Below, piece after piece: positions 13,763-17,035 of a DNA stretch of 64,000 nucleotides. The stretch comes from Candidatus Bathyarchaeota archaeon (lineage in GTDB: Archaea; Thermoproteota; Bathyarchaeia; 40CM-2-53-6). Each line of letters opens with the position of its first letter. Position 1 is the first letter of the stretch. A program made the translations under genes and the position numbers. Location: positions 96,001 through 160,000 of the forward strand of contig CAVTBR010000001.1 of the NCBI GenBank assembly GCA_963733055.1, in the 5' to 3' direction. Below the pieces are notes generated by a model. It searched no databases and had not been told where the DNA came from. It saw only the letters and a list, made by a program, of their open reading frames with translations.

Positions 13763-15205
13763 ATGGCCCTCCCGAGTAATAGTGCTTCTGGGAATAGCCA
13801 TCCAGATCTGCACGCCTGCGTTTGGCCTGATTCGCCGCCGATAGGCTTGCATAGAAAACAAAACAAGGCGGTCCATGCTACCTTGCCTGCTTGGCGTAGA
13901 GTATTGGAAGAGGAGTATGATGGTTTCAAGTTCAGGGTGCTCTTCAACAAGTATGGATACAGCCCCCATCATGCCGAGCATTTCGTTGAGAACGGATTCG
14001 AAAAACTGCTCATGGCGGATCCGCACATCCGCCGATCGGTTATCATCTACAACATAGACAAGAAAGAGATAGAGTGGGAATATCCGGTCAAGGGTGATGC
14101 GACCTCCGCCAACCCACATGTCGTAAGAATCTTGCCCCAAGACATACCTGAGATTGGCGCCTCACAAGGGAGCATAATGTTCGCGGATCGCAATAACGAA
14201 TGGAACTTCGTTCAAATAAGCTCGGGCAATGTACAGTGCAAAGTAACCATGCCCGAAGTGAAATGGGCTCATGATATTCTTCTATCGAAGAACGGGGATG
14301 GCTTCATTGTCACAGACTACTCAGCGCAGTTCCTCAGCAAGATAAACTTCAAGGGAAACATAATCTGGCGACACGGGGATTTCGGTCCAATGGCCAAACT
14401 ATCACTGATAGAAGGAAAGACACCGAGTGGCGTTCATTCAAACACTCTCGGGGGTGACTACCTGGCAGTGCGCAACTCAATACCTTACGGGGTTTTTGAG
14501 ATAAAGGATGAGGATGGAACAGTTGTGGAAAGCATACCTCGCGGCCGAGGAACCCTAAACAACTTCTGGTGTTACGCACCCCACTCCGCGTTCAGAAAAG
14601 GGATTGTTGAAGCCAACGGGCACTTGACCGTGGTGGGCTTTGAAGCAGGAGGCGGCATCGTGGGGCTGGATCAATGGCAAAGGCCCAGGTGGGGCGTGAT
14701 GAAAGGCTTCACAGACGTAGGTGGCCCAAGGTATATTCCGTCACGTTACGGCCTGACCGAGACGACCCATGTTTTCCCTACCCTATCCGGAGGCGTTGGA
14801 GCCATAGACTGGTCGGGCACTTACTCTTCGCGCGTAATTGAGATTCTAAAATGGCCAAGATCCAACCTGAGCTTCATGCTTGCTTGGGAATACGACCCAG
14901 GCGAAGGTTCCTTCCTCGATCCACCATTAGATGTCATGGAATACAATGAAATTTCCATCAGCCTAACGAATACGGGCGAGGCCGCGGTCACCGGAACGCT
15001 GTATGAAACCGCGTTGCCAATCATCTTCGCCAGTGATGTGAGAGGCAGTGGATGGACCCCCATATTGCCGTCACTGGACGTGGGGCCGGGAGAAACCAGG
15101 AGGATAGAAATGCCGACCAGAGGGCGCAGCTTCCTAAGACTGTTTCTGAAGCGATCTGACTTGCAAAAAGCCACTACCGTAAACGTTGTCGCGTCCTACC
15201 AATGA
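13763..15205 (+). CDS. Hypothetical beta-propeller protein (arylsulfotransferase-like repeats) with C-terminal beta-sandwich
   Basis: 480-aa ORF with repeated K-I/V-x-W strands and PH/AH motifs (ANPHVV, WAHDI, APHSA). Confidence 0.55.
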   Translation: MALPSNSASGNSHPDLHACVWPDSPPIGLHRKQNKAVHATLPAWRRVLEEEYDGFKFRVLFNKYGYSPHHAEHFVENGFEKLLMADPHIRRSVIIYNIDKKEIEWEYPVKGDATSANPHVVRILPQDIPEIGASQGSIMFADRNNEWNFVQISSGNVQCKVTMPEVKWAHDILLSKNGDGFIVTDYSAQFLSKINFKGNIIWRHGDFGPMAKLSLIEGKTPSGVHSNTLGGDYLAVRNSIPYGVFEIKDEDGTVVESIPRGRGTLNNFWCYAPHSAFRKGIVEANGHLTVVGFEAGGGIVGLDQWQRPRWGVMKGFTDVGGPRYIPSRYGLTETTHVFPTLSGGVGAIDWSGTYSSRVIEILKWPRSNLSFMLAWEYDPGEGSFLDPPLDVMEYNEISISLTNTGEAAVTGTLYETALPIIFASDVRGSGWTPILPSLDVGPGETRRIEMPTRGRSFLRLFLKRSDLQKATTVNVVASYQ

Positions 15206-15329: not shown

Positions 15330-15452
15330 TTAGAGTTCGAAGCCGCAGTCTGGGTTGGTGCATTTCCAAGTACCGCTTCCAACCGGAAGTAGGACACCCG
15401 ACTCACATTTCTTGCACTGCGGAAATCCACTTACGCTTATGTTCACTGCCAA
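15330..15452 (-). CDS. 40-aa zinc-ribbon microprotein (not in ORF track)
   Basis: SD GAGGTGA 5 nt before TTG; MAVNISVSGFPQCKKCESGVLLPVGSGTWKCTNPDCGFEL. Confidence 0.8.
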   Translation of the reverse strand: MAVNISVSGFPQCKKCESGVLLPVGSGTWKCTNPDCGFEL

Positions 15453-15472
15453 TCAGCTCACCTCTGCAGCTC

Positions 15473-15724
15473 TTACTCATAGATCATCAAGCAGTTGCCC
15501 GCAAGGATTTCCCCGCGGAAACGAGCGGTGGATATAGGAATTAGCGGGTGGTTTGAAGGAGTTACCCTGCTCGGCCAATAGGGGTCATAAGTGAACTCAT
15601 GAGTCGGAAGAGGAATCACAATTGGAATTGGAGCTGGAGCCGGATACGCATACGGGACCGCTTCGGGGTAAGGGTTGTACATTGCTTCTTGGTAGGGGTT
15701 GTACATTTGTTGGCATTGACACAT
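15473..15724 (-). CDS. 83-aa Pro/Tyr-rich low-complexity protein
   Basis: MCQCQQ-MYNPYQEA-MYNPYPEA-VPYAYPAPAPIP...; ends 20 nt before the Zn-ribbon gene. Confidence 0.65.
   Translation of the reverse strand: MCQCQQMYNPYQEAMYNPYPEAVPYAYPAPAPIPIVIPLPTHEFTYDPYWPSRVTPSNHPLIPISTARFRGEILAGNCLMIYE
15660..15707. repeat. 24-bp imperfect tandem repeat encoding MYNPY(Q/P)EA
   Basis: GCTTCGGGGTAAGGGTTGTACATT / GCTTCTTGGTAGGGGTTGTACATT. Confidence 0.8.
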
Positions 15725-15888
15725 AATCTATCGCCTAACGTGAACTCTTTAGATAATGTGCAATTAAGCGTATGTGGTGGATCACGTCGCCATTTCGTTA
15801 CCTATGCTCAACAATGCGACAGTGGACGCTCGCATTTGCACATCTCGATACATCCAAGAACTACGCAATTACACTTCCTAGGTCAACA

Positions 15889-15926
15889 GGAAACAAAGAA
15901 GGGTAGGGAGAGGGATCTCCTCTCTC
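15889..15926 (-). terminator. Putative terminator after the 39-aa peptide gene
   Basis: GAGAGG-AGATC-CCTCTC stem followed by pyrimidine tract CCTACCCTTCTTTGTTTCC on the minus strand. Confidence 0.45.
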
Positions 15927-15958
15927 AACGTCTCGCTTCACTTATCGGTTCAATACGC

Positions 15959-16078
15959 TTAGTATTCCCAGACGTAGTAGCCGTACCATGGGTAGTAGTA
16001 CGGGTAGGTAGGGGCGTAGTATGGAAACGCCGCATAGCCCGGATACCAGTCGGGAACTTTCATTTTCACAGTTTTCAT
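15959..16078 (-). CDS. 39-aa Tyr/Pro/Trp-rich micropeptide (not in ORF track)
   Basis: Strong SD GGAGGTGA 9 nt before ATG; MKTVKMKVPDWYPGYAAFPYYAPTYPYYYPWYGYYVWEY (12 Tyr, 6 Pro, 3 Trp). Confidence 0.7.
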   Translation of the reverse strand: MKTVKMKVPDWYPGYAAFPYYAPTYPYYYPWYGYYVWEY

Positions 16079-16170
16079 CGCGGTATTTCACCTCCTCCAA
16101 TCTACACCTCAGTTTTCTCTCTGCACCTCAACGAGGCGTGCGGAGGTTGGTCCCCGAGCTCCGTTAACGG

Positions 16171-16230
16171 TTAGTAGAAGAAGTAGAACCCCGAACCCAC
16201 TAGTGCCGGAGGCACGTTCAAGTCAGGCAC
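16171..16230 (-). other. Possible 19-aa leader peptide/uORF ending in FYFFY
   Basis: GTG-start ORF VPDLNVPPALVGSGFYFFY*; no SD, possibly leaderless. Confidence 0.35.
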
Positions 16231-16284: not shown

Positions 16285-17035
16285 GTGACTATGCTAATTG
16301 TTCAGGTTTCTGACATTCACGTCGGCCCCGAATTTCAGGAAGAGATCTTTCAGAAAGGAGTTGAAGAAGTCAACGGTCTGAAGCCGGATGTGCTCTTGGT
16401 TACCGGTGATTTGACCGAGAACGGCCTCCTTTCGCAGTATCAGCGAGCGTCGGAATTGATGAAGGGTTTCACTTGTCGTTCTAAGATTTACACCAGCGGG
16501 AACCACGATTACCGGAATACGGGATACTTGCTGTTCAAGCACTTCTTTCCATCCAAGCCAGTGGCCCGGAAGAAGGGAGTGACGATCACGGTGGTGAGCA
16601 CGGCTCGGCCCGAGCGAAATGATGGAGAGGCGGGATACCGACAGATCGTCTGGCTTGAGAAAGCCCTTGCACATGAGAAGGGTCTCAAGCTGATAATGAT
16701 GCACCACCACCTAGTTCCCGTGCCGGATACGGGACCGAATACCATTCCGATCCTAGATGCAGGAGACGTTCTTCGAGCTCTGGGCCGATCGAAACCAGAC
16801 CTAATTGTGTGCGGGCACCGTCACAGACCCTGGAAGTGGACCATAAACCACATCCCAATAGTTCACGCCGGAAGCTTCTCATCAGAACGCTTGCGCAGGC
16901 TTCTTCTCCAACTCCTACAACGTAGTCAAGGCGGGCGATGGAAAATTCGATGCTTGGCTAAAGATAATCGACGGCCCACGTCTTGAATTCGACAAAATTA
17001 CGAAGGGAGAATCGGGTCTTTCAAACCTTCCCTGA
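16285..17035 (+). CDS. Calcineurin-like metallophosphoesterase (Icc/CpdA-like) with a +1 frameshift near 16897
   Basis: SDIH, TGDLT, GNHD, MHHH, CGHRH; C-terminus GFFSNSYNVV...NLP* continues in the +1 frame after TTGCGC-A-GGC. Confidence 0.85.

Follow-up and report, generated by a model that had tools for sequence, protein, structure and literature searches.

Small archaeal proteins with one zinc site, tyrosine-rich spore coat proteins and peptides with cross-linked aromatic residues are the described systems closest to a cluster of small genes in a Candidatus Bathyarchaeota archaeon. The cluster was analysed within a 64,000-nucleotide (nt) stretch of contig CAVTBR010000001.1 (positions 96,001 to 160,000), referred to below as the window. 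It lies on the minus strand and comprises three genes, p39, p83 and p40, with products of 39, 83 and 40 amino acids (aa) (Table 1). Positions are those of the window unless prefixed; G000 is the host genome, and G002 to G022 are its relatives. Our preferred, still tentative reading is that the locus holds three small-protein genes of one Bathyarchaeia genus, the products of which would be non-enzymatic aromatic microproteins driven by association.

Four reports (PMC6562870, PMC10716476, PMC11241148, PMC2253796) describe archaeal proteins of <70 aa with one Cys4 site, namely the single-domain zinc-finger micro-proteins of Haloferax volcanii, and Brz of Halobacterium. In these reports, stress adaptation, biofilm formation or swarming depends on several of the micro-proteins, and Brz is a regulator of the adjoining gene. 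With its 40 aa, p40 falls within the same length. Its motifs, CKKC-E/D and C-T/S-NPDC, differ from the pair of C(P)XCG motifs by which the Haloferax set is defined; phylum and habitat differ as well, and no homology was shown. The ribbon of Ta0289 (1pvm/2qh1; DUF1936) has the arrangement CxxC...C-x-N-P-x-C in common with p40, residues 13-38 of which align with chain residues 152-183. In Ta0289 the ribbon is fused to CBS domains, whereas p40 is free-standing, its knuckles are joined by a shorter loop and its score is below the Pfam cut-off.

For the tyrosine-rich proteins, CotC and CotU of Bacillus subtilis offer a comparison; PMC7944565 describes them as small, very tyrosine-rich and assembling into higher-mass forms. 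The p39 and p83 proteins are also small with very high tyrosine content, but they are rich in proline and tryptophan at fixed positions and have no sporulation context or visible export signal. CotC and CotU are rich in lysine and aspartate and are deposited on the spore. No relation of p39 or p83 to them was found by way of Pfam families, no direct sequence comparison having been made. The composition also recalls other tyrosine-rich low-complexity proteins, a likeness with no homology or common context behind it. Aromatic residues are cross-linked in some peptides made on ribosomes and modified after translation (RiPPs), where cytochrome P450 or radical S-adenosylmethionine (SAM) enzymes make biaryl or cyclophane peptides. 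Like the precursors of these, the p39-type open reading frames (ORFs) are short and dense in aromatic residues, and their several paralogues have an N-terminal segment in common. The co-located maturase, a defining feature of such systems, is missing at every locus examined here.

Table 1. Features of the p39-p83-p40 locus, its flanks and the p89 paralogue
Feature	Position	Strand	Remarks
p39, 39-aa Tyr/Pro/Trp-rich microprotein	15959-16078	-	Type-1 member of a multi-copy peptide family
p83, 83-aa Tyr/Pro-rich protein	15473-15724	-	N-terminal MCQC, variable middle, conserved C-terminal 40 residues
In-frame 24-nt tandem duplication in p83	15659-15706	-	Two copies of an 8-codon unit, MYNPY(Q/P)EA
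p40, 40-aa Cys4 zinc-ribbon microprotein	15330-15452	-	TTG start, 20 nt after the p83 stop
GAGGTGA, Shine-Dalgarno-like	15458-15464	-	5 nt before the p40 TTG; kept in G019
GGAGGTGA, Shine-Dalgarno-like	16088-16095	-	9 nt before the p39 ATG
Promoter-like block	16161-16190	-	T-rich box, then TTAAC-containing box; about 85-112 nt 5' of the p39 ATG
Terminator-like element	15891-15924	-	3' of p39; GAGAGG/CCTCTC 6-bp stem, 5-nt loop, T-rich tract
CACATAnGCTTAATTG, conserved 16-nt block	15761-15776	-	37-52 nt 5' of the p83 ATG
19-codon ORF	16171-16230	-	GTG start; proposed in the earlier note, unsupported as a gene
191-aa ORF	15599-16174	+	Longest in the region; antisense to p39 and the p83 N-terminus
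480-aa protein gene	13763-15205	+	Convergent flank of the minus-strand microprotein cluster
Metallophosphoesterase gene	16285-16986	+	Divergent flank, upstream side of p39
p89, 89-aa Tyr/Pro-rich paralogue	G000:C1:864862-865131 (L071:2863-3132)	-	Found in the Tyr scan; ends GNCLMICQ

Evidence for three small genes

Judged by comparison with relatives, p39, p83 and p40 are real, conserved genes under purifying selection. A DNA search of 40 relatives gave six matches, every one in the same genus. Synonymous and non-synonymous changes were compared as pairwise dN/dS (ratio of non-synonymous to synonymous substitution rates), and pairs with saturated dS were excluded from the ranges. Across the p39, p83 and p40 pairs with unsaturated dS, values were 0.06-0.22, one p40 pair excepted. 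Identity of p39 to the host protein was 92% in G019, 79% in G016 and 72% in G022, with in-frame indels of one and two codons. Against G016, changes had occurred at 13.5 of 20.2 synonymous and 8.5 of 87.8 non-synonymous sites (dN/dS 0.06); against G019 and G022, dN/dS was 0.22 and 0.17. For p83, identity was 76% in G019, 51% in G022 and 50% in G016, dN/dS was 0.09 against G019, and all indels were multiples of three. The G019 protein has a single copy of the 8-codon unit that is duplicated in the host, leaving a 24-nt gap. The p40 protein was 90% identical in G019, 68% in G022, 65% in G014 and 60% in both G004 and G015, and none was found in G016. Its dN/dS was 0.06-0.18 in five of six unsaturated pairs (0.09 against G019); the excepted pair, G014 and G015, gave 0.48 on only 6 differences. 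Start contexts of the genes are kept, and the p39-p83 spacer diverges in G016 and G022 where the ORFs are conserved.

The ORFs are very short and of low complexity, as would be expected if they were chance ORFs or conserved non-coding DNA, a reading that we regard as barely credible. Against it stand the skew of substitutions towards synonymous sites at saturated dS, the in-frame indels, the retained Shine-Dalgarno sequences, the divergence of spacers but not of ORFs, and dozens of equally long relatives in the databases. The chance reading is contradicted for p39, p83 and p40 and is true solely of the 19-codon ORF. An earlier note on this DNA had described four co-oriented small ORFs, two with strong Shine-Dalgarno sequences and one with an in-frame MYNPY(Q/P)EA duplication. 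Both Shine-Dalgarno sequences, the duplication and three of the ORFs were recovered, and the fourth, the 19-codon ORF, was rejected. In the corresponding frame of G019 a TAA lies upstream and no ATG, GTG or TTG is present. Conservation is limited to the 3' part of this ORF because the promoter-like block overlaps there. The same note had set conservation of frames, Shine-Dalgarno sequences and synonymous-biased substitution in close relatives as its test; conserved frames and synonymous-biased substitution were found for p39, p83 and p40, and the Shine-Dalgarno sequences of p39 and p40 are kept.

The 191-aa ORF on the plus strand was rejected as an antisense shadow. Over the same DNA, G000 and G019 are 92% identical in p39 and 76% in p83, compared with 46% in the antisense ORF, which has no Pfam match and will probably be mis-called as a gene. 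Annotation of archaeal metagenome-assembled genomes (MAGs) routinely overlooks small proteins, and calling by the longest ORF would here favour the spurious 191-aa frame and leave three real genes unseen. The p39-p83 spacer also contains a micro-ORF starting MCKC (15838-15870, minus strand), reminiscent of the MCQC with which p83 begins. G019 retains this micro-ORF (4 codons) and G016 part of it, and it is absent from G022.

The p39 peptide family

The p39 peptide contains 12 Tyr, 3 Trp, 1 Phe and 6 Pro and is about 40% aromatic. By tyrosine fraction (31%, compared with 3.2% in long ORFs) it comes third among the 29,402 host-genome ORFs with 30 aa or more. Four p39-like copies are present in this genome, type 1 (p39 itself), type 2 on contig C2 and types 3a and 3b on contig C3, and they take ranks 1, 3, 4 and 5 in tyrosine content. 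Database searches of 5.8 billion proteins (43 candidates scored) gave 26 clusters of 32-63 aa, named "hypothetical protein" at most. Family peptides of 32-41 aa have the fixed positions YP...Y...Y...PW-x-GYY, with 8 invariant and 5 nearly invariant columns among 25 sequences. The paralogues have in common a short N-terminal segment of about 10 residues, M-K/R-T-x-K..VP, and vary more in the aromatic part; among orthologues the aromatic part is as strongly conserved as the N-terminal segment.

The relation between the types was tested with a hidden Markov model (HMM) built from type-1 sequences alone, against which each of 11 peptides was compared with 500 of its own shuffles. The type-2, G020 and G010 peptides outscored all 500. 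The scores of nine of the 11 peptides were reached by at most one shuffle, that is, by none for seven of them and by one each for type 3a and P0025. Since the type-1 model scored the peptides above their shuffles, the family has residue order in common and not composition alone. The weakest relation to type 1 was found for type 3b, whose score was reached by 27 of 500 shuffles. A class-wide search for p39-like peptides gave matches in 6 of 401 genomes. This search under-detects, as two host sequences on which it had been trained and a copy in G010 escaped it; its negatives are therefore weak, and the spread of the family within and beyond the genus is uncertain.

Outside the p39 locus, p39-like peptides occur in unrelated gene contexts. 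The type-2 peptide is kept in G019, G022 and G013, always between a gene for a 62-aa zinc-finger-like protein and a GH130 gene. The type-3 peptides are kept in G013 (two copies), G019 and G010, and G022 gave a DNA match. A 236-nt stretch of G013 (G013:C17:8065-8300, L125) is 99% identical to the host type-3a locus, far above other regions common to the two genomes, and may reflect recent transfer or a bin mix-up. The 62-aa protein adjoining the type-2 peptide (G000:C2:103543-103728; L041:1240-1428) has the motif CxxC-x12-CxxxC and a weak, sub-threshold match to Pfam DUF7128. An obligate pairing of tyrosine peptides with small zinc fingers was rejected: each of 22 genus genomes has 1-6 copies of the finger family, and a tyrosine-rich ORF is present at only 5 of 30 loci. 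Other tyrosine-rich micro-ORFs of the host lie at C1:1276553, C1:1034541 and C1:1280677, the last of which, a 50-aa ORF, was rejected as a family member on its absence from the five relatives searched.

p83 and the p89 family

The conserved C-terminal 40 residues of p83 read YDPYWPSR ... RFRGE..GNCLMIYE. The protein has six representative clusters only among 1.84 billion proteins and, within the taxonomic family, was found in 4 of 59 genomes, which belong to a single genus (4 of 23 genus genomes). On profile comparison, p83 is a divergent paralogue of a second family, represented in the host by p89: hhalign gave 90% probability (E 1.6e-6) over 16 columns at the C-terminal motif. Members of the p89 family are Tyr/Pro(/Gly)-rich, 70-110 aa long and carry the C-terminal motif RGE-x3-G-N/R-C-L-M-I, often with an N-terminal MCxxC; the full ending is PRGE-H/Y-x-V/L-G-N/R-C-L-M-I-C(Q). 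Alike in the two are the Cys-bearing N-terminus, the Tyr/Pro-rich middle and the C-terminal RGE...GNCLMI, whereas p83 ends in IYE instead of ICQ and has the additional conserved block YDPYWPSR. The HMM of the p89 family retrieves p89 and not p83 in the host, and the p83 HMM has no p89 match at E <=10.

The spread of the two also differs, p89 relatives being present in 21 of 23 genus genomes. Among 401 genomes of the class, they were found in 27, namely the host, 20 of 22 other genus genomes and 6 of 10 of a sister genus, with none in the 368 elsewhere. The database held 84 clusters (3,669 candidates scored), all "hypothetical" and from Bathyarchaeia where named, apart from one title of Acidoferrales and one Joint Genome Institute label of a cytochrome oxidase subunit. 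In 6 of 15 loci, the gene after the p89-family gene is co-oriented and encodes an MFS transporter.

By these comparisons, p39 and p83/p89 are undescribed protein families. At curated Pfam and NCBIfam cut-offs no match was obtained for p39, p83 or p40, PHROGs and PADLOC gave none, and p39 and p83 had none in the Protein Data Bank (PDB). At E 0.01, no Pfam match was found for any of 13 p89-family members, any of 25 p39-family members or p83, and the ESM Atlas returned no usable match for one p83 relative and one p89 relative. No description of such peptides in Bathyarchaeia was found in the literature, supplements not being covered. Two lineage-restricted families are thereby defined, peptides with about 40% aromatic residues at fixed positions and Tyr/Pro-rich proteins with a C-terminal motif that are near-universal in one Bathyarchaeia genus.

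The p40 zinc ribbon

Only p40, among the three proteins, matches a solved structure. Its profile retrieved the C-terminal zinc ribbon of Ta0289 from the PDB with E 3e-4; against Pfam DUF1936 (PF09151) it scored 15.2 bits, the cut-off being 25. The cysteines of the CxxC ... CxxxxC motif (C13, C16, C31 and C36) are invariant in all six aligned orthologues. From profile and motif, p40 is a stand-alone Cys4 zinc ribbon that resembles the Ta0289 C-terminal domain. Four database clusters were found, and an order-level search gave strong matches in 10 of 105 genomes, all in the genus, and weak ones in 5 more. In G002 a start-less, p40-like ribbon remnant (L081:1716-1829, G002:C8) directly follows a p89-family gene.

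The cysteines suggest a different role, as small Tyr/Cys/His proteins that bind metals or buffer redox state, which we consider rather improbable. In this case p83 and p89 would hold a metal through terminal Cys/His/Glu, p40 would have a rubredoxin-like Fe/Zn site, and the tyrosine peptides would scavenge radicals or metals. The p89 family offers an N-terminal CxxC, a C-terminal C-x3-C and a nearby E-H/Y, the ribbon of Ta0289 matched by p40 reportedly binds iron, and the neighbours of the locus include redox enzymes, an LLM oxidoreductase and a PNPOx-like protein. Against such a role, the Cys motifs are absent from one whole p89 subfamily and vary among p83 relatives, p39 has neither Cys nor His, and synteny with the redox genes is limited to close kin and broken in contig L057.

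Putative transcription and translation signals

Upstream of p39, the promoter-like block lies in the intergenic region common to p39 and the divergent metallophosphoesterase gene. All 22 aligned loci have it in nearly invariant form. They comprise the host, three genome contigs and 18 metagenome contigs and include several near-duplicates; two further loci were left out because the start-finding pattern missed their start. By position and conservation, the block is a candidate p39 promoter, which would give a leader of roughly 85-110 nt. The Shine-Dalgarno-like GGAGGTGA is kept in all 22 loci, in one with two substitutions, and is part of a conserved leader stretch that covers about 30 nt ahead of the ATG. 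The promoter-like block contains a perfect 10-bp palindrome, CCGTTAACGG (16161-16170), which could be a regulator site and is not kept in all relatives.

A second conserved element precedes p83. In the four genomes CACATAnGCTTAATTG is invariant but for one position, and the rest of the p39-p83 spacer diverges; this 16-nt block is probably a BRE/TATA-type (B recognition element and TATA box) promoter for p83-p40. Of six over-extended ORF calls in databases, four include this DNA, read in frame. Two transcription units can thus be proposed, p39 alone and p83-p40. Between them, the terminator-like stem after p39 described in the earlier note is present together with a T-rich tract. Its fold only weakly exceeds that of shuffled sequences (z -1.94; 9 of 200 shuffles fold as well), and we take the element as a putative terminator. 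The same element is found in G019, a T8 run in G016 and a different hairpin with a T-rich tail in G022. Promoter, Shine-Dalgarno and terminator anatomy of the locus can be tested. Rfam and transfer RNA (tRNA) scans gave nothing in the locus and a single sub-threshold chance Rfam match outside it. No RNA data sets were listed as containing the 985-nt locus stretch, and the best DNA sets contained at most 0.14 of the sampled words.

These signals also bear on whether p39 is a cis-acting leader, whose translation would sense aromatic aminoacyl-tRNA or stall at the proline-containing end and so set read-through into p83-p40. Tyrosine codons are dense up to the stop, a hairpin or T-tract lies 3' of p39 in all four genomes, and p83 always comes after p39. 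We nevertheless hold this to be very improbable, given the separate conserved promoter-like block between p39 and p83, the weak hairpin fold and the purifying selection on every position of p39, non-aromatic ones included. In addition, paralogue 3a has no co-oriented gene downstream, type 2 precedes the unrelated GH130 gene, and p83 and p40 are not genes of aromatic amino-acid biosynthesis. From its sequence features, p39 does not look like a codon-counting leader or a mere store of amino acids.

Gene order

In type-1 loci, p83 follows p39 in all 18 evaluable metagenome contigs and in all four genomes, and p40 follows p83 in 13 of 17 contigs and three of the four genomes. The 19 type-1 metagenome contigs hold only the genes for LLM, metallophosphoesterase, p39, p83, p40 and the 480-aa protein. 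The metallophosphoesterase gene is upstream in 18 of them; in contig L057, p39-p83-p40 and the upstream block stand behind an aldehyde dehydrogenase gene instead. Genomes lacking p39 and p83 retain the phosphoesterase in a different context. The proposal of an undescribed peptide system, made in the earlier note, thus stands for the conserved families, which are undescribed, and not for a single unit: p40 is solitary elsewhere, p39-like peptides have unrelated contexts and the promoter-like elements appear to be separate.

Association and its alternatives

No signal peptide, transmembrane segment or sorting motif was visible by eye in p39, p83 or p40, no predictor having been run, and the three proteins would, on this inspection, be cytoplasmic. 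The dense aromatic and proline residues at specific positions may act as multivalent contact surfaces for self-assembly or partner binding. The conserved C-terminal motif of p83 with its cysteine could serve for docking or for binding a metal, perhaps in concert with the zinc ribbon, and p40 would be an optional partner of p83. It is the fixed Tyr/Trp/Pro spacing, together with the conserved non-aromatic N-terminus of p39, that leads us to favour the association-driven reading. Structural or scaffolding microproteins would be likelier than precursors of modified peptides. The association mechanism, taken alone, is held with lower confidence than the statement as a whole.

Several observations weigh against the favoured reading. 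For the association mechanism, the evidence is that of composition and conservation. As every relative is close kin, gene order is weak evidence for functional linkage. A p83-p40 complex is not obligatory, since each gene occurs without the other: p40 without p83 in at least seven genomes, in G014 between unrelated genes, and p83 without p40 in G016 and 4 of 17 contigs. The cysteines of p83 vary, with Trp in place of the C-terminal one in 2 of 10 relatives and the N-terminal pair absent in one. Between G000 and G019, the type-2 peptide gave a dN/dS of 0.59, on just 10 differences.

In place of association, the p39-type peptides, and perhaps p83, could be RiPP-like precursors, with an enzyme encoded at another place in the genome cross-linking or otherwise modifying their aromatic residues. 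In favour of this, each peptide is small, a genome has several paralogues with a common N-terminal segment and a more variable aromatic part, the conserved C-terminus and variable N-terminus of p83 are reminiscent of follower-type precursors, and a single SPASM-domain radical SAM protein is encoded in the genome. Its gene lies about 780 kb from the locus on the same contig, and no maturase, RiPP recognition element, peptidase or transporter was found beside a peptide in 20 metagenome loci and four paralogue contexts. The presumed core is conserved among orthologues as strongly as the presumed leader, and the common segment has only about 10 residues. The main text of a survey of archaeal RiPPs, supplements not being covered, contains neither Bathyarchaeia nor tyrosine or aromatic. 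With this balance we consider modification in trans unlikely.

The extreme tyrosine content would also suit extracellular or envelope material cross-linked through tyrosines, in the manner of the CotC/CotU spore coat, whose proteins form high-mass assemblies in Bacillus spore coats according to PMC7944565. The genome encodes a 227-aa protein with a long Tyr/Ser-rich stretch (G000:C1:1033048-1033731; L073:1549-2232) and one multicopper oxidase. The sole oxidase domain (G000:C1:160255-160572) is part of a 551-aa ORF just past the end of the window, 48 kb from the locus. The oxidase was rejected as a partner on this distance and on co-occurrence: it is present in 11 of 23 genus genomes and does not track the peptides, which occur without it in G016, G013 and G020, while G005, G012 and G014 have the oxidase and no detected peptide. 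No P450 was found in the genome, and a tyrosinase search was uninformative, the control genomes being silent. As the three proteins also show no export signal by eye, cross-linked material of this kind seems quite improbable. The dityrosine coat, amino-acid storage and RiPPs modified in trans that had been suggested in the earlier note gained no support.

A bolder proposal takes the tyrosine/tryptophan/proline peptides, four per genome, and the RGE...GNCLMI proteins together as a previously unseen archaeal class of aromatic microproteins, either RiPPs cross-linked in trans or self-assembling stacked material or condensates for which p83-type proteins would provide the nuclei and the zinc ribbon the cap. 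We regard it as speculative and doubtful. If true, a new archaeal RiPP class or aromatic-stacked material or condensate would be new biology for uncultured soil and peat Bathyarchaeia. Should the peptides assemble, bind metals or be modified, they would give a new handle on the cell biology of these abundant uncultured archaea; should they do none of these, they would still be useful markers and a caution for annotation.

Neighbouring genes and further observations

Thirteen window ORFs around the locus (8.7-22.8 kb) were scanned with Pfam, and four were left without any match. The matched neighbours are a histidine kinase, the PNPOx-like protein, the metallophosphoesterase, the luciferase-like (LLM) oxidoreductase, an ECF transporter, an aldo/keto reductase and a Fe-S assembly protein. 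Among these 13 ORFs no radical SAM, P450 or peptidase domain was detected, in agreement with the earlier note, which had seen no such gene adjacent. Nor was a maturase found in the 20 metagenome contigs or the scanned window ORFs, and none was apparent in the flanks of the listed genome loci.

The 480-aa neighbour is conserved and has no Pfam, NCBIfam, PHROGs or PADLOC match. It was rejected as part of the module, being downstream in 10 of 19 type-1 contigs; G016 has the gene, G019 a remnant, and none was detected in G022. The metallophosphoesterase has sub-threshold similarity only to anti-phage phosphoesterases. A virus or defence origin was rejected, as PHROGs and PADLOC matched none of p39, p83, p40 and p89 and no relatives of the p39 or p83-p89 families were found in viral contigs. 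One contig, DATIYC010000007.1 (L015), is titled as from an Acidiferrales bacterium, yet it bears an LLM, metallophosphoesterase and p83 block of the Bathyarchaeia type, and its MAG is probably mislabelled or mis-binned.

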